In this document: positions 3,775 to 17,505 of the stretch, piece after piece
Position numbering within the stretch: position 1 is the first letter of the stretch
Layout: the number at the start of each line of letters is the position of its first letter
Source of the DNA: Acidimicrobiia bacterium
Lineage (GTDB): Bacteria > Actinomycetota > Acidimicrobiia > Spongiisociales > SHLN01
Direction of reading: 5' to 3'
DNA: 32,962 nt
Assembly (NCBI GenBank): GCA_041619515.1
Contig: JBFKDW010000027.1
Coordinates: 1 to 32,962, forward strand
Notes under the pieces: generated by a model
What the model was told of the DNA's origin: nothing
Databases searched by the model: none
What the model saw: only the letters and a program-made list of their open reading frames with translations
Made by a program: the position numbers and the translations under genes

Positions 3775-5019
3775 CTAGTCGGAGAGGAGCATGCCCCGAT
3801 CACGGCGGTCGCTACGGGCCGCCCAGGCGTAGAGCGCAACCGCCGGCATCAAGAACACGCCGGCGACGACGAACGCCAAGCCGATCGAGACGGCGGTGGC
3901 GAGCCAACCCAACAACGGCCCGCCCGCGATCTGGCCGAACGCGTCACTTTGCCCCTGCATCGAAAGAACGGTTGCCCGCGAACGCGACTCCAGTTGCTCG
4001 TTGAGCCACGCCATGAGCAGGGGGCCGTGGACGATGCGCAGGAGCAGAGCGGCCTGGTACAGCCCAACGGCGAGGGCGAAGCTGCCGGCCAGGCCGAGGC
4101 CGACCACCGACGCACTGATGAGCAGGGCCAGGAGCGTGAGGATGATGGGGATGTGTCTCATCGAGCCGGCACCGATCCGCCTTCGTATCAAACCCGCCGC
4201 CACCACCGAAAGCAGCACGGCAACGGCGTCGATGAGCCCAAACCACACCACCGCCGACCAATCCGGCGTCGCCGGGAACTCGAAGCTGGTGAGTATGAGC
4301 GCCTCCCACAGCCGGTCGAATGTCTCCGAGAACGCGCCCAGGAACATGACGGCCCCGAATAGGGCCAAAAGCGCCCGCCGCCGGCGGATCAGCGCCACCC
4401 CGTGGGCGAGGGTGGCTTTCATGTCGGTCCAGGTTCTTCGCTCCGACCGTGGAACGGCGGCAAACCCGGTCTCGGGCATCCATACGGCGAGGGCGGCAGC
4501 AACGACAAGGTATCCGGCTCCGCCCACGATGAGCGGCAGACGGAGATCCACCGACGCCAGTGCCATAGCCGCCAGGATCCCCGCCAGCGAGGCGAACTGG
4601 CTCACCTGGGTGCCCCGCAGCAGGGCCCGGGCGGTGGCCACGTTGTCGCCAAGCTCATCGGCCAGCCATGCTTCGGTGGCGCCGCTCGTGAATGTGTACC
4701 CGAAACCCCAGATGACCTGGGCGGCCAGCACCGTTCCGAACATGGAGACGGAGCCTTCCAGAATGAACCCGGCACCCATGATGGCGGTGCCGATGATCAC
4801 CGAGAGCCGGCGGCTGATCGTGTCGGCGACGACACCGGTTGGAATCTCAAACACGAAGGCGCTGACTTCGAGCGCGGTTCCGACCAGCACCAGCTGCAGC
4901 GGGTTGAGGCCGACGTCCTGGATGCGATACAGGGCGTTGAGGGCGCCCCAGGTCCAGAAGAAGAACCCGGTCGTACCCACCAGCCACAGGTAGATGCGGT
5001 AGGCGGAGCGGTCGGGCAC
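3775..5019 (-). CDS. MFS efflux transporter, TetA(P)/Tet(40)-like subfamily
   Basis: About 12 TM helices. LNPLQLVLVGTALE...FEIPTGVVADTISRRLSVIIG...GFILEG...AQVIWGFGYTFTSGATEAW is closely similar to the TetA(P) N-terminus as I recall it. Confidence 0.85.
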   Translation of the reverse strand: MPDRSAYRIYLWLVGTTGFFFWTWGALNALYRIQDVGLNPLQLVLVGTALEVSAFVFEIPTGVVADTISRRLSVIIGTAIMGAGFILEGSVSMFGTVLAAQVIWGFGYTFTSGATEAWLADELGDNVATARALLRGTQVSQFASLAGILAAMALASVDLRLPLIVGGAGYLVVAAALAVWMPETGFAAVPRSERRTWTDMKATLAHGVALIRRRRALLALFGAVMFLGAFSETFDRLWEALILTSFEFPATPDWSAVVWFGLIDAVAVLLSVVAAGLIRRRIGAGSMRHIPIILTLLALLISASVVGLGLAGSFALAVGLYQAALLLRIVHGPLLMAWLNEQLESRSRATVLSMQGQSDAFGQIAGGPLLGWLATAVSIGLAFVVAGVFLMPAVALYAWAARSDRRDRGMLLSD

Positions 5020-6688: not shown

Positions 6689-8104
6689 ATGCACGCACCG
6701 GTGTTCTCCGAGGCATACGCCGACGATGCGCCGCGCCCTCACTATCGGGAGCTGGTCGAGCGCCTCGAAAAGCTCGGGACCGAGGAGCTGGAGCGGCGGT
6801 CTCGCCTCGTCGAGTCGACGTTCCGAACCCTGGGAATCACCTTTGCGGTCACAGGCCGGGAAGAGGGGCTGGAGCGGACCTGGCCGATGGACCTGGTTCC
6901 CCGCATCATCCCGGCTGCCGAGTGGGCCACCATCGAGGCCGGGCTCAAGCAGCGGGTCAGGGCTCTCAACCTCTTTCTCGAAGATCTGTATGTGGGCCCG
7001 CAGGCGGCCCTGGCCGAGGGCGTCGCTCCGCGCTGGCTGGTGGAGTCGGCCGACGGCTACCTGCGCCAGGCGCAGGGTATCGAGGCCCCGGAGGGGGCGA
7101 GATGTGTGGTGGCCGGCATCGATCTGATCCGGGACAGTGAAGGTGTCTATCGCGTCTTGGAAGACAACCTGCGGGTCCCGAGTGGTATCTCCTACGTGCT
7201 GGAGAATCGGGTGGCGATGACCCGCGCCCTCCCTACCGCCTTCGCCAATCACGACGTCCGCCCGGTGAACCACTACGGCGCGATGCTGCTCACCGCTCTC
7301 CGGTCGATCGCCCCGCCCGCGAGCAGCGACCCCACCGTGGTGGTGTTGACGCCCGGAATCGCCAACTCGGCCTATTTCGAACACGCTTTCCTGGCCCGCC
7401 AGATGGGGGTCGAGCTGGTGGAAGGACGAGACCTGGTGGTCGAGGACCATGTCCTCTATATGCGGACCACTCGCGGATTGCATCGGGTGGACGTGGTCTA
7501 CTCGCGCGTCGGGGACGAGTTCCTCGATCCGGTCGTGTTCCGGGCAGACTCCCTGCTCGGTGTCCCGGGACTGCTGACCGCCTACCGAGCCAAGAACCTC
7601 ACGATTGCGAATGCGGTTGGGAACGGGGCGGCCGACGACAAAGCCGTGTACGCCTACGTTCCCGACATGATCCGCTTCTTCCTGGCCGAGGAACCGATCC
7701 TCCCGAATGTGACCACGTACCTGCCGTGGAATCCCCAAGACATGACCCTCATACTCGATCGCCTCGACGAGCTGGTCGTGAAGCCCGTTGCCGAAGCCGG
7801 AGGATATGGGATCGTGATCGGGGCCGACGCCGACCGGCAGACCCTGGACCGCCTCCGCCGGACTCTCCTCGACAACCCGCGGGGCTACATAGCCCAGGAG
7901 ACCATCCAGCTCTCGACCCACCTCAGTTTCGTCGATGGAAAGCTCGCCGAGCGCCACATCGACCTGCGCCCGTTCGTGCTGACCGGCTCGCAGATGGAGG
8001 TTGTTCCCGGCGGGCTCACCCGGGTGGCACTCCCGGAGGGCTCCCTGATCGTCAACTCGTCCCAGGGGGGCGGCTCCAAAGACACCTGGGTGCTGGAGGT
8101 CTGA
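6689..8104 (+). CDS. Circularly permuted type 2 ATP-grasp protein
   Basis: WPMDLVPRII, GLKQRVRALNLFL, VLEDNLRVPSGISY, LTPGIANSAYFEH, NGAADDKAVY, DLRPF, VNSSQGGGSKDTWV. Confidence 0.93.
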   Translation: MHAPVFSEAYADDAPRPHYRELVERLEKLGTEELERRSRLVESTFRTLGITFAVTGREEGLERTWPMDLVPRIIPAAEWATIEAGLKQRVRALNLFLEDLYVGPQAALAEGVAPRWLVESADGYLRQAQGIEAPEGARCVVAGIDLIRDSEGVYRVLEDNLRVPSGISYVLENRVAMTRALPTAFANHDVRPVNHYGAMLLTALRSIAPPASSDPTVVVLTPGIANSAYFEHAFLARQMGVELVEGRDLVVEDHVLYMRTTRGLHRVDVVYSRVGDEFLDPVVFRADSLLGVPGLLTAYRAKNLTIANAVGNGAADDKAVYAYVPDMIRFFLAEEPILPNVTTYLPWNPQDMTLILDRLDELVVKPVAEAGGYGIVIGADADRQTLDRLRRTLLDNPRGYIAQETIQLSTHLSFVDGKLAERHIDLRPFVLTGSQMEVVPGGLTRVALPEGSLIVNSSQGGGSKDTWVLEV

Positions 8105-9063
8105 TGCTGTCGCGCCACGCCGAAGACCTGTACTGGACCGGACGCTACATCGAGCGGGCAGAGGACACCGCCCGTCTCCTCGACGTCACCTACCACGGGA
8201 TGCTCGAATGGTCGGACAAGGACGTGCCCCAGGCCCAGCGCGACCTGCTGGAGGTGCTGTTCCTCGACGAGACGTTCGACGGTGACCTGAGCGATACCGC
8301 AGCCGTGACCGAGTTCCTCGTGCTCGACACCGACAACCCCGGCTCGATCACCGCCGCCGTAGAACGAGCCCGGCTCAACGCTCGCGGCCTCCGGGACCGC
8401 ATCTCGAGCGAGCTGTGGGAAGCCATCAACACCTTCTACCTCGACCTGCGAGCCCGGGACCTGCGCGCCGATATCGAGCGCCAGCCATACCAGGTGTATC
8501 GCTGGGTGCGCAATGCCTGCCAGACGGTGACCGGCGTGGCGGCCGAGACGATGCCACACGACGACGGGTACCGGTTCCTGGTCATGGGACGTCTCCTGGA
8601 ACGGGCGGAGATGACGTGCCGGCTGCTCGACGTGCGCTATCACCGCCTCGTCGATTCGGGGGGTGCGGCCACCGCCTTCAACCGGTGGGCGGCGCTGCTC
8701 AAGTCGGTCTCGGCCTACGAAGCGTACCTCAAGGAATACCGCGCGGCCGTTGACCCCATCAAGATGCTGTCCTTCCTGCTGCTATCTCCGAACTTCCCCC
8801 GCAGCGTGCGATACTGCCTGCGCGGAACCGAGGAGCAGCTCGCCGAGTTGCTCGAGCCCGACCGGCTCACCGATGCTCAGCGTCTCCTCGGCATGGTCGG
8901 CGCCAAAGTGGAGTATTGCGACATCGATTCACTGGTGAATGCGGACCTGGGCGGCTTCCTCGACGAGCTCCAGCGCGACATATCCCAGGTCGGCGTGGCG
9001 ATCGACCGACATTTCTTCCACCATGCCACCGATCTCGACCTTCATTTCTACATCTCCCGATGA
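8104..9063 (+). CDS. Alpha-E domain-containing protein
   Basis: MLSRHAEDLYWTGRYIERAEDTARLL, NARGLRDRISSELWEAIN, GRLLERAEMTCRLL, FPRSV. ATG8104 overlaps the upstream stop. Confidence 0.92.
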   Translation: MLSRHAEDLYWTGRYIERAEDTARLLDVTYHGMLEWSDKDVPQAQRDLLEVLFLDETFDGDLSDTAAVTEFLVLDTDNPGSITAAVERARLNARGLRDRISSELWEAINTFYLDLRARDLRADIERQPYQVYRWVRNACQTVTGVAAETMPHDDGYRFLVMGRLLERAEMTCRLLDVRYHRLVDSGGAATAFNRWAALLKSVSAYEAYLKEYRAAVDPIKMLSFLLLSPNFPRSVRYCLRGTEEQLAELLEPDRLTDAQRLLGMVGAKVEYCDIDSLVNADLGGFLDELQRDISQVGVAIDRHFFHHATDLDLHFYISR

Positions 9064-9944
9064 TGCGGCTCGAGATCCGCTACCTGACGACCTTTGAGTA
9101 CCCGCAGCAGGTGCGGGATTCCCACAACGTCCTGCGAGCCTGTCCTACCACCGACGACTTTCAGGCCCTCCTGTCCTACACACTGACCACCGACCCGGCA
9201 GCCCGGGTTCTCTCCCACATCGACTACTGGGGCACCAGGCTCGATGTGTTTGGGATCCGCCACCCCCACGATCGACTGTCGGTGATTGCCGACTCCACGG
9301 TGGAAACGTACCCACGGCCCGCTCCTGAGCCCGACGCCTCCACCGACCCCTACCGGGACGACGCTTACCGGACGGAGCACCGCGAGTATCTGGCCGACAG
9401 CCCCCATACCATCGCCGGCTCGTCCCTCGGCGACCGTGCCCGCCAGCTCGTCGGGGACCGAGCGCAGGCGGTGGCGGCGGTCGAGGCGCTCATCGACGAG
9501 GTGCGGCGGCTGCTCGCCTACGAGCCGGGCACCACCTACGTCGGGATGAACCTGGACGAGGTGGTGAAGCAAGGCTCGGGTGTCTGCCAGGATTTCGCTC
9601 ACACCCTCATCTCCATGGCCCGGAGCGCAGGCATCCCGGCTCGCTACGTGTCCGGCTATCTGTACGCAGCCGACCAATCACTCGGCCGCCCGCCGGAGGA
9701 GGCGGAGATCGAAGTGCAGACCCATGCCTGGGCTGAGGTGGCCATCCCCGGCTGGGGGTGGTGGGCGGTGGATCCGACCAATCGCGAACCGGTCGGTGAG
9801 CATCACGTCAAGATCGGGCACGGCCGCGACTACGACGACGTCGCTCCCCTGCAGGGCGTCTATCACGGCCCCGCCAACCATCGGCTTGGAGTGAGCGTGC
9901 GCATCTCCCGCGAGCAGATGAGTGAATACCAGTCACAACAGTGA
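9060..9944 (+). CDS. Bacterial transglutaminase-like protein
   Basis: Catalytic triad motifs GVCQDFAH, THAWAEV and DPTN, plus GRDYDDVAP. ATG9060 overlaps the alpha-E stop. Confidence 0.93.
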   Translation: MMRLEIRYLTTFEYPQQVRDSHNVLRACPTTDDFQALLSYTLTTDPAARVLSHIDYWGTRLDVFGIRHPHDRLSVIADSTVETYPRPAPEPDASTDPYRDDAYRTEHREYLADSPHTIAGSSLGDRARQLVGDRAQAVAAVEALIDEVRRLLAYEPGTTYVGMNLDEVVKQGSGVCQDFAHTLISMARSAGIPARYVSGYLYAADQSLGRPPEEAEIEVQTHAWAEVAIPGWGWWAVDPTNREPVGEHHVKIGHGRDYDDVAPLQGVYHGPANHRLGVSVRISREQMSEYQSQQ

Positions 9945-12307: not shown

Positions 12308-12333
12308 GAGCGAGGGCGGCGGCGCCCTCGCTC
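12308..12333 (-). terminator. Perfect 11-bp GC-rich hairpin downstream of the 30-aa peptide gene
   Basis: GAGCGAGGGCG-gcgg-CGCCCTCGCTC, starting about 26 nt after the peptide stop. No clear U-tail, which is common in actinobacterial terminators. Confidence 0.55.
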
Positions 12334-12359
12334 ACGAACCGATGCCACACGGACCGGCG

Positions 12360-12452
12360 CTACCGGATGTTCACCACCGCCGCGAATGCGGACTGGGCGA
12401 ACAGCGCCATCGCCGTGGCCAATGCCAGGGCAAATGTCACGAGTCGTCTCAT
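12360..12452 (-). CDS. 30-aa secreted pre-peptide MRRLVTFALALATAMALFAQSAFAAVVNIR (putative signalling peptide precursor)
   Basis: AGGAGG 8 nt before ATG. n-region MRR, hydrophobic h-region and A-F-A signal peptidase I motif leave only AVVNIR (or VVNIR). Below the ORF-track length cutoff. Confidence 0.8.
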   Translation of the reverse strand: MRRLVTFALALATAMALFAQSAFAAVVNIR

Positions 12453-12530
12453 ACGTAGCCCCTCCTCTCGGGGTTCAATCGTTGAGGAGGAGATCGGCAA
12501 AGATCGAAATTCCTACAGTTTGCGGCAGCC

Positions 12531-15500
12531 TCAGCGGGGGCCGGCCGGGTCCCGGCTGCCCCGGGTCACCACCGCCACCCCCGCCCGCCGGAGAACCTGC
12601 AGATCCCTGCGGATCGTCCGAACGCCGGCCTCGAGAGCGGTCGCGAGGTCGACGACGGTGGCCGCCCCATCGGCGGCCTCCGTCTCGGCCAACAATCGTG
12701 TCAGGCGATGCCGCCGCCGCTCGGCGGAATCGGCGATCTCGGCATCGGCCGGATCGTCGACGGTCCAGGCCACCTCGACGAAATCCTCCTGGCGCAGGGG
12801 CCGGCCGGTGGGAACATCCCGCCGCGCCAACCGGACGACTACCTGCCTGGGCCGGCTACGGGCAGCGGCGTCTTCTATGGCGCGGTGCTCGGGAATGGCC
12901 AGAGCCGAGGCCAGCTGGTCCGACGGCAGGTCCACCAGACGTTCGGCCAGCAGCACCTGAGCCTCGAGGAACGCCCGTCCTGCGTCCTCGATCAACCCGG
13001 CCGCCTCGAGCACCAGCCCGCGCCGGAACGGCACCAAGTAGCCCTGATCGGTCCCGGGACTGAGGCGGCGAACGGCATCCGATGTTGCGGCCATGGCTCC
13101 GGCAATATCGTCCTGGCCCAGCCGGGCAAGACCCACCACCGACAGCAGGCCGCCCTCGAAGTTGGATAGCCCCAGATCGCGGCAGATCGAGAGACCGCGG
13201 TCGGCGGCCGTGGCGGCTTCCGCCTCCTTGCCCATCGCCAGGAGCAGTTGCGACTGGGCATACAACAGCTGCACCTCCATCCATCGGTTCCCGGCCCGCT
13301 CGACCGCCGCCAGTCCCTTCCGAATGTGGTGGGCGGCCTCGTCGAATCGCCCGGCCCGCCTCTCGATCTCGGCGAGATTGCACAACACCTGGGCGGCACC
13401 GTCCTCGTTGTTGACCTCGACGAAGTATTCGAGCGCGGACCGGCAATACTCGCCGGCCACCACATCGTCGCCGACCACCGAGTGGTGGATCGAAGCAGCA
13501 TTGGCCTGCACCAGCGCCTGGCCCCGCCGATTGCCCATCGAGCGGAACAACTCGATCGCCTCGGCAAAGGAGCTGAGAGCTTCCGAGATACGCCCGGCGA
13601 ACCAGAGCGCATTCCCCCGATTGGCCGTGTTCACCGCCTCACCGTGCCGGTACCCGATCCTCCTGCTCAGCACGACTGCCCGGTCGTAATAGTCGACGGC
13701 CCCATCTGACTCACCGCGTTCCATCGTGATGATTCCAAGCAGGCCGAGCGCCTCGGCCTCGCCGCGGGCATCGTCTGCGCTGCCGAACAACTCGAGCGCC
13801 GTCTGTGCCTCGACGGCGGCTTGCTCGTATTCCTGCACGGCGCTGAGGGCGCTGCCGAGGGCCCGGCGGGCATGGGCCTGCTGCTGCGTGCTGGTGGCCA
13901 GCTCCGCCCCTTCACGGAGGTGCTCGACGGCGAGCGCGAGATCTCCGGACCATAACCCGATTGTCCCCAGTGCCATCCGGTCATCCGCCATGCCCGCCCG
14001 GTCCTCCGCTTCGGTGTCGGAGGCCAGAGCCGCCTGAGCGGCCCGTTCGGCTTCCTGGAACCGGTCGGTATGTGCGAAATGCCAAGCGGTGCGCCGCAGC
14101 ACGGCCGCCCGGCGGTCACTCGCCCCTTCGACCAGCGCCTCCATGTCCGCGAGTGCGCCGGCCTGCTCGTCCCGACGCCCCAGCACGTCGAGGACATGCT
14201 CATAGCCGAACAGCAGGTTGAGACGCTCGTTGTCCTCCAACTCTTCCACCTCCAGGGCCGTCTGGTAGTGGGAAGCGGCGGTGGCGTAGGCCCGCATCGC
14301 AACCGCCCGCTCGGCTGCCAGCACGGCGTACGGCTTGGCTGCCCTGCCGAGGCCGGCCTGGACCAGATGGTGGGCGATGGACTCGGAATCCTCCGGGTGA
14401 AGCTGTTCGAGGGCGGCTGCAATCGCCCGGTGCCAGCGGCCGGCCTGACCTGGGCCGAGCTCGCGGAGGGCTACCCGCCGCACCTGCTCATGGCGGAACC
14501 GGTACCGGTTGCCCCGCTCGTAGAGGATGCCGCGCGAGACGAGCAGATCGAGACCCTCGAAGAACTCGGGCCGGGGGCAGTCGAGTGCCACCAGCATCAC
14601 CTCGGCTTCAGCTTCGAGACCGGCCACGGAGAAGACCTCGAGAATCGCGCGATCGGCGGCGCCGAGCGACTGGAGGCGCCTGGAGATCAGCTCCTGGACG
14701 GTGGCCGGAAGCGGGAACTCCCCGACAACGCTCTGGGAGCCGGCCGCTGCCACGTTGTGCTCGTGCATGGCCCGCAGGGTTTCCAGCACGAACAGGGGAT
14801 TGCCTCCGGTTTCCGCATGGATCCGGCCCACCATTTCGGCTTCTCCCCGGGTGGCCGAGCTCACCCGAATCAGCTCGGAGGTTTCTTCACGCGACAGCGG
14901 ATCGAGAATGAGACGGCTCGAACGGTTGAGTGCGTCGATGCTGCGGAGACCGTCCCACACCGCACTGCGATCACGTGCCTCGTGGGCGCGATAGGACAGG
15001 CACACGACGATCGGCTCGTCGGCAATCACCGCCGCCAGATGGGACACTGCCGCCACCGTGTCGTCGTCTGCCCATTGGAAGTCGTCGAGGATGAGCAACT
15101 GTGGGGTGGCACGGGCAAGGCCGATCACGGTGCGGGCAATGGCTTCCCTCATCCGGCCGGCTTCTTCCGACGGCTCCAGCGCGGCCACCGGCGAAAGGGT
15201 CGGCAGCCACTCGCGAAAATCGGGGATGAGTCGCGAAAGCTCGCTGAGCCATATCGGATCGACCTGGGCGGCGAGCTGCTCGGACCGCAGCCCGGAAACG
15301 GAACCCCGGAGCGCCGAAGACAGCGGGTGATAGGAGCGGGCGGCGTCTCCCTGCAAGCCCTCTCCCCACAGCACTCCCAGGCCCCGCCAATTGGCATCCT
15401 CGGCAACCGACTCGAGCAGCCGGGTCTTGCCGACGCCGGGCTCACCCTCCACCAGCAGCACGGCGCCGCGTCCCGTCAGAGCCGCCTCGATGGCGGACAC

Positions 15501-16352
15501 CGCACGCGAGCGCGGGCCGTCCCTGCCGACCATCGGCACCGGGGTAGCCAGATCGAACAGCGGCGAGCGGGCCACCGGGACGAATGGTTGGCGCCCGGCG
15601 CGGCGCTGCGATGCGATCGACTCCATCAGCTGGGTGGTAGCCGTTTCCGGTTCGGTGCCGAGCTCGTCGGCCAGCGCCGAATAGCACACCTCGTACTGGA
15701 GCAGCGCCTCGTTTGGCCGGCCCGCCAGTTGAAACAGGCGCATCACGTCGCGATGAGCGTCCTCACGCAGTGGCTCCAGCAGCGTCAAGCGGCGAGCGTA
15801 GACCAGGGCATCCTCGAACTCGCCCCGGCTCTTGTGGAGGGTTGCCAGGTGAGACAAGGCCCGGTAGTAGATCTGGCGCAGCCGCTGCTGATCCATGAGG
15901 AGCCAGTCGTCGTAGAAACCGGCGAGCAGGTCGCCCCGGTACAACTCAACGGCCCCGGCCAGCTCCCCCGGATCCCTCACCCCGCCGGGACCGGCGCCGG
16001 CTTCTTTCAGCGACGCGGTAGCCGTTTCGAAGGCCTCGACGTCGAGCCAATAATCGGAAGCCGGATTGAAACGGACGGCGTTCGGGGTCGGGAGCAAGTA
16101 CGAGCCGGCCAGCCCGGCCTCGGAGAACAACGTCTGGATCTGCCACAGAGCCTGGCTCAGCCGTCTCCGCGCCTGGTTGTCGGGCATGTCCGGCCAGAAC
16201 ACCCCCGCCAGCAGGTCGCGACCTATCTGGCGGTCCCGGTTGAGCACGAGATAAGCGAACAGGGAACGCCCGGGGCGCGAGGGAATACGAGGAAGTATCC
16301 GCCCGTCGCTCTCCAAGAGCAAGCCCCCCAGCAGCCGGATCTGGAGGCTCAC
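12531..16352 (-). CDS. Large AfsR/SARP-type STAND regulator: wHTH-BTAD-NTPase-TPR with C-terminal DUF1670-like HTH
   Basis: LQIRLLGGL...SLFAYLVL...RDLLAGVFWPD (wHTH); ELYRGDLLAGFYDDW...EPLREDAHR...ELGTEP (BTAD); GEPGVGKT Walker A; LILDDFQWAD Walker B; TGGNPLF; many TPR-like repeats; C-terminal DLATALEAGVRTIRRDL HTH. Start uncertain (16352, 16361 or 16424). Confidence 0.9.
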   Translation of the reverse strand: MSLQIRLLGGLLLESDGRILPRIPSRPGRSLFAYLVLNRDRQIGRDLLAGVFWPDMPDNQARRRLSQALWQIQTLFSEAGLAGSYLLPTPNAVRFNPASDYWLDVEAFETATASLKEAGAGPGGVRDPGELAGAVELYRGDLLAGFYDDWLLMDQQRLRQIYYRALSHLATLHKSRGEFEDALVYARRLTLLEPLREDAHRDVMRLFQLAGRPNEALLQYEVCYSALADELGTEPETATTQLMESIASQRRAGRQPFVPVARSPLFDLATPVPMVGRDGPRSRAVSAIEAALTGRGAVLLVEGEPGVGKTRLLESVAEDANWRGLGVLWGEGLQGDAARSYHPLSSALRGSVSGLRSEQLAAQVDPIWLSELSRLIPDFREWLPTLSPVAALEPSEEAGRMREAIARTVIGLARATPQLLILDDFQWADDDTVAAVSHLAAVIADEPIVVCLSYRAHEARDRSAVWDGLRSIDALNRSSRLILDPLSREETSELIRVSSATRGEAEMVGRIHAETGGNPLFVLETLRAMHEHNVAAAGSQSVVGEFPLPATVQELISRRLQSLGAADRAILEVFSVAGLEAEAEVMLVALDCPRPEFFEGLDLLVSRGILYERGNRYRFRHEQVRRVALRELGPGQAGRWHRAIAAALEQLHPEDSESIAHHLVQAGLGRAAKPYAVLAAERAVAMRAYATAASHYQTALEVEELEDNERLNLLFGYEHVLDVLGRRDEQAGALADMEALVEGASDRRAAVLRRTAWHFAHTDRFQEAERAAQAALASDTEAEDRAGMADDRMALGTIGLWSGDLALAVEHLREGAELATSTQQQAHARRALGSALSAVQEYEQAAVEAQTALELFGSADDARGEAEALGLLGIITMERGESDGAVDYYDRAVVLSRRIGYRHGEAVNTANRGNALWFAGRISEALSSFAEAIELFRSMGNRRGQALVQANAASIHHSVVGDDVVAGEYCRSALEYFVEVNNEDGAAQVLCNLAEIERRAGRFDEAAHHIRKGLAAVERAGNRWMEVQLLYAQSQLLLAMGKEAEAATAADRGLSICRDLGLSNFEGGLLSVVGLARLGQDDIAGAMAATSDAVRRLSPGTDQGYLVPFRRGLVLEAAGLIEDAGRAFLEAQVLLAERLVDLPSDQLASALAIPEHRAIEDAAARSRPRQVVVRLARRDVPTGRPLRQEDFVEVAWTVDDPADAEIADSAERRRHRLTRLLAETEAADGAATVVDLATALEAGVRTIRRDLQVLRRAGVAVVTRGSRDPAGPR

Positions 16353-16524
16353 GGGGCCCACGCTACCCCCGGCGGTGCCCGGTCGCCAGCCGTAGGCGCT
16401 GCCTGCGTCCGACCCACCACTCATGGTGATGGCCGCAAGGTTGGCGGCGGAGCTGCCGGGGGCCGAGACAGCAGCAATAGACCCTATTCGTATGGTTTTG
16501 CCAGCTAACACCCGGAGGCACGCC

Positions 16525-17505
16525 ATGTCATGGTTCGGAACACCACCAAAGGGATCGCTTCGCTCGGCTCTCATCCCGGTGCCGGCGGTTCTGAACGGCT
16601 CATCTCTTCTGCTGTCGGCGACCCCGTTCCCGGGCACTTCGGCAGGAACGGGGCGTCCCTCCGCCGGCCGGGCTCGTGGCGCCCGGCACAACCCACGCGG
16701 ACCGGGGGCGAGTCGCTATGCGCTGCTCGACCGCGTGCGGGGCAAGCGGTGGGGCGAGCTGCCGGCTGCTCCGCCAGCCGGGCGCCACACCTCTCCGGTG
16801 CGGTTCGTCACCGAGCGTGCCGGGCGTGTATCGGCGCCGGGAGTTCCCGCCCGCCCGACGAGCCGGCCCGGAGTGGTCATCATCGCCCGTCCCTGCGACC
16901 TGCTGGCCCAGCTGGTTGCCACCAGCCTCATCTATGCCCACGTCCCCACCTGCCAGCTCGACCCTTCGGACCTGCCCGACGTCGAGCTCGAGTGGCATGG
17001 TGATGTGATCACGATCACAGGCCAGCCCGTGCGAGGACTGCTGTGGCGAACCCTTACCTGTCCCGGCCCCGACCGGCCCGCCACGGCCGAGACCGATTCG
17101 GATTCCTACGATCCGCCGGTCACCGCCAGCTGGTTGGCCGCGGCCAGCTTTCCCTCGATGCGGGCGGTCAACGCCTACGATGCGGAGGCCTGGCGGCGCG
17201 GCGCAGGGTGGCGGGTATGGAAGGACCGGCTCAGCAGGTGCGGGGTGCCCGTTGAGTCACCGGAGCAGCCCTCCGAGTCACCCGGGGTTGCCAGCCTGGT
17301 GGTGTGCGGGCGGGTCGTGTCCGGGCCCGAGACGCCGGCGGTGGAGGCGGCCGCCGAGGCACTCGAGGCGTCCGGCGTCCGCCTTGCTTCCGTCACCTCC
17401 CTACCCGACGGGCGGGTCAGCGACGTGGATCCTCATCCGCAGGCGTTCCAGTCGGTGGCGGTCCGCAGGGCCGCCACCCGCATCGCCGACTACCTCGCCG
17501 CATGA
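16525..17505 (+). CDS. Hypothetical protein with a degenerate RimK/MvdD-like ATP-grasp C-terminal region
   Basis: GGAGG RBS before ATG16525. VVIIARPCD, VRGLLWR, SWLAA..RAVN, SLVVCGRVV and VSDVDPHP loosely echo peptide-maturase ATP-grasp motifs, but the central ATP-binding part looks missing. Confidence 0.5.
   Translation: MSWFGTPPKGSLRSALIPVPAVLNGSSLLLSATPFPGTSAGTGRPSAGRARGARHNPRGPGASRYALLDRVRGKRWGELPAAPPAGRHTSPVRFVTERAGRVSAPGVPARPTSRPGVVIIARPCDLLAQLVATSLIYAHVPTCQLDPSDLPDVELEWHGDVITITGQPVRGLLWRTLTCPGPDRPATAETDSDSYDPPVTASWLAAASFPSMRAVNAYDAEAWRRGAGWRVWKDRLSRCGVPVESPEQPSESPGVASLVVCGRVVSGPETPAVEAAAEALEASGVRLASVTSLPDGRVSDVDPHPQAFQSVAVRRAATRIADYLAA

Follow-up and report, generated by a model that had tools for sequence, protein, structure and literature searches.

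A candidate peptide-signalling cassette of Acidimicrobiia pairing an AfsR-like STAND regulator with a small gene for a putatively secreted hexapeptide

Can the ligand of a large bacterial transcription factor be encoded by the small gene that follows it? The question is raised by a locus of an Acidimicrobiia bacterium (assembly GCA_041619515.1, contig JBFKDW010000027.1), of which positions 1 to 32,962 of the forward strand were analyzed and are referred to here as the window (32,962 nucleotides). On the minus strand of the window, a gene for a regulator with Streptomyces antibiotic regulatory protein (SARP), signal transduction ATPase with numerous domains (STAND) and tetratricopeptide repeat (TPR) modules (12531–16352) is followed, 78 nt past its stop codon, by a 30-codon open reading frame (ORF), MRRLVTFALALATAMALFAQSAFAAVVNIR (ATG 12452 to TAG 12360–12362, minus strand). 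This small ORF comprises a signal-peptide part, MRRLVTFALALATAMALFAQSAFA (12381–12452, minus strand), with a basic n-region, a hydrophobic core and an A-x-A motif, and the tail AVVNIR (12363–12380, minus strand), the presumed mature hexapeptide, which directly precedes the stop codon. The original prediction, made from the letters of the DNA alone, had taken the two genes for a candidate peptide-signalling pair, and its physical description of the locus proved correct: the ORF lies on the strand of the regulator at the distance given, is preceded by the Shine–Dalgarno (SD) sequence AGGAGG (12461–12466, minus strand, 8 nt ahead of the ATG) and is followed by an 11-bp hairpin. We propose that the pair is a two-gene signalling cassette in which a self-made, secreted hexapeptide is sensed by the regulator, a proposal whose chances we judge to be evenly balanced and in which export, cleavage, re-import and binding, as well as the direction in which the peptide acts, are inferred.

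The small ORF is a real gene, linked one-to-one with one regulator subfamily. A search of 61 related genomes with the regulator, in which 45 matched at E ≤ 1e-30, provided 28 of 30 returned loci; with 15 lower-scoring paralogue loci these make a set of 43, of which 42 have downstream DNA (loci L023 and L027 end at the regulator, and L029 is a split match, the true end of which is covered by L103 and carries the small ORF). All 42 orthologue and paralogue loci, which belong to the order of the window, have an ORF of the same build, 29–32 aa long and with an SD-like site, 56–211 nt past the regulator stop. The same detector applied to 880 random 500-nt windows gave two hits, one of which is the true ORF with another start, leaving one chance hit. 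The ORF is likewise present in 48 of the 53 named metagenome-assembled genome (MAG) loci with at least 250 nt of downstream DNA, a set that overlaps the 42, and in all loci with downstream DNA from the wider searches described below (5/5 and 4/4), so that the adjacent small secreted-type ORF that the original prediction expected beside homologous regulators is indeed found there. Among eight copies from genus g1, that of the window, synonymous variation affects 11 of the last 13 codons (FAQSAFAAVVNIR) and the lone amino-acid change is R30L in locus L012; judged by this substitution pattern, the codons of the small ORF are under purifying selection.

A profile of the peptide family, run against the 39,924 small ORFs of the window's genome, returned only the two ORFs that stand beside the two regulators of this genome, the next match having E = 1.2; both matches are expected by construction, the informative part being the absence of a third copy. 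The same profile, searched against 1.84 billion representative proteins, gave 48 matches at E ≤ 0.001. Of these, 37 end 5–8 residues after A-x-A and are 29–32 aa long, 5 end in the same way and are extended by an upstream start call, and 6 are longer proteins in which the match is confined to the N-terminus. The possibility that the ORF is the truncated start of a longer secreted protein is ruled out by the length of the copies (29–34 aa) and by the 42 of 48 representatives that end 5–8 residues after A-x-A. One representative, P0066, reads MRRRLTVFVVALMSALAVAAPALASVSDMT followed by 29 further residues; it is apparently a peptide gene of the SVSDMS type whose stop codon has been lost or misread in sequencing. 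Public gene callers do call the small ORF and annotate it at most as "hypothetical protein"; searching the ESM Atlas for the peptide yielded no usable match.

The conserved unit is the pair of regulator and small gene alone, because the flanking genes differ between clades. A HAD hydrolase gene lies downstream in genus g1 only, and EamA, hydantoinase B, MFS, LPG-synthase TM, PFK, nitroreductase and LacI genes are found elsewhere. A leader ORF or attenuator serving the HAD gene is ruled out by this change of downstream gene from clade to clade.

By sequence rules, the pre-peptides have the pattern of Sec/signal peptidase I substrates. In a 39-row alignment Ala at −1 is invariant and Ala at −3 is present in at least 90%, and 66 distinct pre-peptides measure 29–34 aa, all 66 having two or three basic residues within the first seven and 55 having Pro at −7 to −4. 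Behind the conserved A-x-A site come variable tails, which count 5–8 residues and fall into about 50 distinct sequences, with a splitting rule that is crude for a few of them. A lipoprotein reading is ruled out, there being no lipobox and any Cys at all in just 2/66 pre-peptides. The genome encodes signal peptidase I (two matches) and SBP_bac_5 peptide-binding proteins (four matches), which is permissive evidence only, both being common in bacteria.

The protein encoded upstream had been described as a regulator of ~1270 aa with winged helix-turn-helix (wHTH), BTAD, NTPase and TPR parts. It measures 1273 aa plus stop (12531–16352, minus strand, with TGA at 12531–12533), has these domains by Pfam and by sequence matches in the PDB, and bears in addition a C-terminal helix-turn-helix (HTH) domain that the description did not list. 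GTG 16352 is most likely its start, because GTG-AGC-CTC-CAG is kept at this position in 8/8 orthologues of family f1, the clade of the window, and because in orthologue L002 a stop comes after the alternative in-frame GTG 16361, which lies nine bases upstream. The SARP DNA-binding and activation module, an OmpR-type wHTH with BTAD (15609–16352, minus strand; Pfam BTAD E = 4.9e-21), matches EmbR 2fez (E = 1.1e-12), AfsR 8k60 (E = 2.3e-7) and AfsR 8hvr over residues 3–251 when its sequence is compared with the PDB, and gave no match to Pfam Trans_reg_C at E 0.01. The P-loop NTPase core of the STAND module follows, with Walker A motif GEPGVGKT (15009–15533, minus strand; Pfam AAA_16 E = 2.2e-21). 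The protein shows the marks of a large SARP/AfsR-like STAND regulator, that is, wHTH and BTAD, a central P-loop NTPase and C-terminal TPR, and yet is not AfsR proper, scoring 70.3 bits on the AfsR equivalog NCBIfam NF053617 with its cut-off of 1430.

The presumed sensor is the TPR superhelix of residues 655–1170 (12852–14399, minus strand), in which Pfam TPR_12, TPR_1 and TPR_2 match and of which residues ~790–1068 match TPR proteins of the PDB by sequence. An AlphaFold2 (AF2) model of residues 655–1170, built on an alignment of 40 family members, has 27 helices and a predicted local distance difference test (pLDDT) score of 93.4, and its top Foldseek matches comprise LGN/Pins, SPY, OGT and TSK with H3 tail, several of which were solved with extended peptides bound in the groove. 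The C-terminal DUF1670/HTH_11-like domain (12549–12851, minus strand; Pfam DUF1670 1.6e-6, HTH_11 0.002), which also has a weak NCBIfam ArsR/DeoR-type HTH match, is conserved in 40/40 aligned family members.

With few exceptions the named relatives are MAGs of uncultured Acidimicrobiia that come from marine sediment, sand, mud, groundwater and soil; three genomes that carry the pair (G042, G237 and G251) consist of one contig each. When 151 genomes were sampled at class level, the regulator found matches at E ≤ 1e-100 in 18 genomes, all in the order of the window, and five new loci came from this search (the 5/5 above). A phylum-level sample of 201 genomes yielded full-length homologues with 37–39% identity in one further family outside the class, in five of its nine genomes, where the four ORFs mentioned above end in the tails GVRNLGL, GIKNLGL, GIKNMGL and GGSNLGF. 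In the same sample the small ORF was found beside none of 21 shorter AfsR-like regulators (~900–1180 aa, matched to about residue 950 and without the C-terminal HTH), two of whose loci, L147 and L152, come from the unpublished genomes G300 and G347. Presence of the C-terminal HTH, a domain absent from AfsR, coincides with that of the mini-peptide gene in the phylum sample (4/4 versus 0/21).

One genome may hold two or three systems with different tails. That of the window encodes another regulator on contig C4 (40% identity), after which comes MRRRIYVFSVSLLTFLAVSAPALANGNWGS with the tail NGNWGS; the other six genus-g1 genomes have both systems as well, and genus g2 adds a clade with the tail AHGNWG. 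In the first system of genus g1, AVVNIR is constant while the regulators fall to 63–75% identity, and the tails of the second system in this genus read NGNWGS, NGDWGV, DGIWGG, NGNWGR, DGVWGG, NVNWGT and DANWGN. One peptide per regulator, together with distinct tails for the paralogous systems of one genome, is what is expected of a cognate receptor.

A secreted 6–7-mer acting on a TPR sensor is the simplest mechanism covering all these features. The 30-aa pre-peptide would be exported, probably via the Sec pathway, after which a signal peptidase I cut behind A-F-A would release AVVNIR with no further processing. The hexapeptide would accumulate with the cells, re-enter them, probably through a permease of the Opp/Dpp type, and bind the neighbouring AfsR-like STAND regulator on the concave side of its TPR superhelix. 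The bound ligand would turn the NTPase module on, and the SARP module would activate promoters that carry two 7-mers 11 bp apart: in the clade of the window that of the divergent gene at 16525–17505, and in most other clades that of the peptide gene itself, which would amount to positive feedback. In its general form the proposal is more tentative, falling somewhat short of an even call: Actinomycetota would have a pheromone family of their own, in which a hexapeptide made and released by the same cell, from a gene that comprises a signal peptide and six further codons, switches on a STAND factor of the AfsR lineage, akin to nucleotide-binding leucine-rich repeat (NLR) receptors, with dozens of "pherotype" tails and two or three orthogonal systems per genome.

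Promoter sequences bear on the last of these steps. Two 7-mers at an 11-bp period (GAGAyAn-N4-sAGAyAn) lie 51–70 nt ahead of the peptide ATG in 24 of the 42 loci; as controls, AGAyR-N6-AGAnR occurs in 3/5000 random genome windows and in 33/5000 windows of the loci themselves, true sites included. At the peptide promoters a −10-like hexamer (CATACT, CATCCT, GATACC and the like) stands 8 bases past the direct repeat, and an 8-bp spacing to the −10 element is the rule for SARP-controlled promoters. In the window, a SARP-box-like repeat, GAGACAG-N4-AATAGAC (16465–16482), followed after 8 nt by −10-like TATGGT (16491–16496), is found on the plus strand (16465–16496) ahead of the divergent orphan gene MSWFG... 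(16525–17505, plus strand; 326 aa, ATG 16525, GGAGG site), the C-terminal 220 aa of which are conserved in six orthologues. The repeat is present in 7/7 genus-g1 orthologue loci with upstream DNA, and the divergent gene is probably a target of the regulator in the clade of the window. Its protein has no Pfam or NCBIfam family, its homologues being genus-restricted hypothetical proteins, and the AF2 model proved unusable, with a pLDDT of 36.8 on a 6-row alignment. Some public gene calls place the start of this gene no earlier than about residue 120. Another good copy of the paralogue-type repeat, TCTGAGACACATGTGAGACACC, stands at 4392–4407 (minus strand) of contig C14 in genome G000, ahead of an ORF at C14:3565–4332 (minus strand) for an acidic, helical-looking protein of 256 aa; the second regulator of this genome may have a further target here.

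If the tail is the cognate ligand of the TPR region, the two might be seen to diverge together, and the original prediction had proposed testing whether they co-vary. For 64 de-duplicated regulators, arranged as 26 non-overlapping nearest pairs with N-terminal identity of 0.50–0.95, the median ratio of divergence in the TPR region (residues 800–1040) to that in the N-terminal part is 0.86 for pairs with identical tails (n = 9) and 1.27 for pairs with different tails (n = 17): the direction is the expected one, and significance is not reached (one-sided Mann–Whitney p = 0.066). TPR divergence tracking tail divergence is thus suggestive, with a direction that fits a cognate ligand. In the seven genomes that share both systems, wHTH, BTAD and the nucleotide-binding oligomerization domain (NOD) are better conserved in the variable-tail system than in the AVVNIR system (ratios 1.02, 1.08 and 1.12), and TPR residues 800–1040 are less well conserved there, by 0.10–0.24 in mean pairwise identity. 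Specificity-determining columns over four tail classes, nine in number, are scattered over all domains and confounded with phylogeny, and were not used. Co-folding of TPR residues 655–1170 with the 30-aa pre-peptide scored 0.01 against a mark of 0.32 and is evidence neither way on binding.

A number of observations weigh against the proposal of a self-sensed hexapeptide. Next to the missing significance of the co-variation, individual pairs run counter to it, L094 and L101 differing in tail at a ratio of 0.51 and three SISDMS pairs sharing their tail at 1.25–1.89, and the conservation contrast over seven genomes amounts to a single pair of clades. The Foldseek neighbours of the TPR model are generic TPR proteins, receptors of the RRNPP class (Rap, Rgg, NprR, PlcR, PrgX) being absent among the top matches listed. 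Beside five full-length regulators (L092, L107, L117, L122 and L123), a mini-ORF is absent from both strands for 1.5 kb on either side; these may be receptors without a partner, or their peptide gene may have been displaced. (Two of the five come from bins that bear the label Anaerolineae or Anaerolineales.) Among the flanking genes across clades, none for a permease is linked to the pair. As to export, n-regions with RR and RK leave the Tat route open, and a product of 30 aa is too short to leave the ribosome before termination, so that its export would necessarily be post-translational. Finally, the direct repeat ahead of the peptide gene is found in 0/13 loci of the family-f1 orthologues, and positive feedback is therefore not supported for the locus of the window.

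The main rival to a self-sensed ligand makes the peptide an output of the regulator instead of its input: the regulator would activate the small gene, and the hexapeptide could have its target in a membrane sensor, in other cells or species or in the envelope, while the TPR region senses another ligand or a protein. We consider this unlikely. In its favour, an AfsR-type activator promoter precedes the peptide gene in more than half of the loci (24/42), the co-variation of tail and TPR is suggestive only and a linked permease is missing. In addition, AfsR itself is described in excerpts of a preprint (bioRxiv 10.64898/2026.09.02.748808) as having no known natural upstream signal. The strict one-to-one pairing and the separate tails of paralogues, however, fit a cognate receptor; the variable-tail system is more variable specifically in its TPR region; and in the clade of the window, where the activator repeat is missing at the peptide gene, the peptide is not obviously an output. 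The least credible of all explanations, which we regard as practically negligible, is that the frame is there by chance or serves the HAD hydrolase gene downstream as a leader ORF acting in cis, its product being functionless. The hairpin between the ORF and the HAD gene would suit a leader, and this has to be set against synonymous conservation, 42/42 loci versus one chance hit in 880 control windows, and a HAD gene that lies downstream in genus g1 only.

Two further explanations accept the small gene and assign its product another fate. We find it improbable that the 30-aa product remains uncleaved as a small membrane signal-anchor, which would tether or modulate the regulator by its basic N-terminus, behave as a type I toxin-like peptide or, before export, serve as a partner of the AfsS type. 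A basic N-terminus, one hydrophobic helix and a short polar end do resemble small membrane peptides, and a possible SD-sequestering hairpin lies in the 5′ untranslated region (see below). AfsS, moreover, interacts with AfsR through short repeated sequences, as stated in excerpts of PMC10832544. A membrane anchor would have no need, however, of a signal peptidase I site as marked by the invariant Ala at −1, the Ala at −3 and the Pro at −7 to −4; the cytoplasm-facing part would measure only 3–4 residues; and the strongest selection in genus g1 falls on cleavage site and tail. Still more improbable is a precursor resembling those of ribosomally synthesized and post-translationally modified peptides (RiPPs), with the signal-like part as leader and a tail modified by enzymes encoded elsewhere. 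Many tails have aromatic residues or Asn/Asp at fixed positions (for instance xxxWGx and xxRPGH), and the regulator has a weak NCBIfam match to a RiPP-associated TPR protein (57 bits, cut-off 1125), but no maturase is conserved beside the pair, flanking genes differing by clade, and AVVNIR is without the usual modification target.

Among known systems, the nearest by homology is AfsR–AfsS and the nearest by logic are the RRNPP pairs of Firmicutes and phages, with which we compared the locus (Rap–Phr, NprR–NprX, PlcR–PapR, PrgX–PrgQ, Rgg–SHP and AimR–AimP). Excerpts of bioRxiv 10.64898/2026.09.02.748808 and PMC10832544 report binding of AfsR to a 22-bp repeat in the afsS promoter, afsS being a small gene just downstream of afsR. 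The present pair has the same regulator domain order (wHTH-BTAD, P-loop NOD, TPR) and the same placement of a small gene directly downstream on the same strand. Direct repeats of 11-bp period that by sequence resemble the AfsR site lie at the small-gene promoter in the 24 of 42 loci; in the clade of the window the repeat is placed before the divergent gene instead. The pair differs in that the regulator is no AfsR equivalog and bears the extra C-terminal HTH, in that its small product is a 30-aa signal peptide with six residues and no repeats, whereas AfsS is a cytoplasmic repeat protein of 63–87 aa, and in that the 21 shorter AfsR-like regulators lack such an ORF.

The mature peptides of RRNPP systems count 5–8 residues, and paralogous systems have distinct peptides; both features are matched by the tails here, the presumed mature peptides. 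Of the five signature criteria in excerpts of PMC10075063, the pair shows four, namely a small propeptide (10–100 aa), an export signal (here by sequence rules), a TPR receptor and adjacent genes; the receptor, put there at 250–500 aa, is here a protein of 1273 aa with STAND NTPase and SARP output. The present system further differs in its lineage, Actinomycetota, and in that the mature peptide would be set free by nothing more than the signal peptidase cut. In MalT and other STAND factors a NOD is followed by a helical-repeat sensor, and the ligand is thought to license the NTPase switch. The regulator shares this order of NOD and helical-repeat domain with MalT, and differs from it in its SARP output and in its proposed ligand, a gene-encoded, self-secreted peptide as opposed to a metabolite.

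Peptide signalling through TPR receptors in the cytoplasm is regarded as a trait of Firmicutes. According to excerpts of PMC10075063, the RRNPP survey reported there covered Firmicutes and viruses only, with receptors of 250–500 aa, and signals of Actinomycetota are typically small molecules. Full-text searches, outside which most subscription journals fall, returned no account in which a STAND/SARP regulator is paired with a secreted mini-peptide, and none of such peptide quorum sensing in Actinomycetota. A pair conserved in Acidimicrobiia and in a second actinobacterial class would extend RRNPP logic to a new phylum and to a STAND/NLR-like receptor class. If true, the system would be convergent with RRNPP and a natural case of a bacterial NLR-type sensor whose peptide ligand is made by the cell itself; it would also give a hint of the input that TPR domains of AfsR-type regulators respond to, a point that bears on the upstream signal that the preprint cited above describes as unknown. 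The candidate ligand is encoded in the genome, has six residues and is cheap to synthesize, and binding and activation are thus directly testable; the many tail variants would give ready orthogonal peptide–regulator pairs for specificity studies.

The remaining features of the locus concern the flanks of the small gene. Downstream lies the terminator-like hairpin (12308–12333, minus strand), with an 11-bp stem and a 4-nt loop, GAGCGAGGGCG / CGCCCTCGCTC, seen in the sequence and in the consensus fold of nine orthologues, which has 12 pairs, six of them with compensatory changes. Upstream, an anti-SD stretch, CTCCTCCTC (12484–12492, minus strand), with a conserved CCTCC is predicted to pair with the SD sequence; the predicted SD-sequestering hairpin, formed by the conserved CTCCTCC with the SD (12461–12492), has an energy of −21.6 kcal/mol at z = −1.36, which alone is not significant, and might gate translation of the peptide gene. 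Family-f1 loci share CTGTAG(G/T)TTTTT...GCCGAT...CCTCC ahead of the SD of the peptide gene. A clade-specific, promoter-like motif, CTGTAGGAATT (12508–12518, minus strand), is kept in 9/9 f1 orthologues, and its pattern has two matches in the genome, that at 12508–12518 in a conserved promoter context and a second at C2:22775–22785; a loose genome-wide scan with the window-type promoter motif was too unspecific for defining a regulon. Elsewhere in the window (6689–9944, plus strand), genes for CP_ATPgrasp_2, an Alpha-E domain protein and a transglutaminase-like protein stand in a row, a recurrent conserved trio that is seemingly unrelated to the pair.

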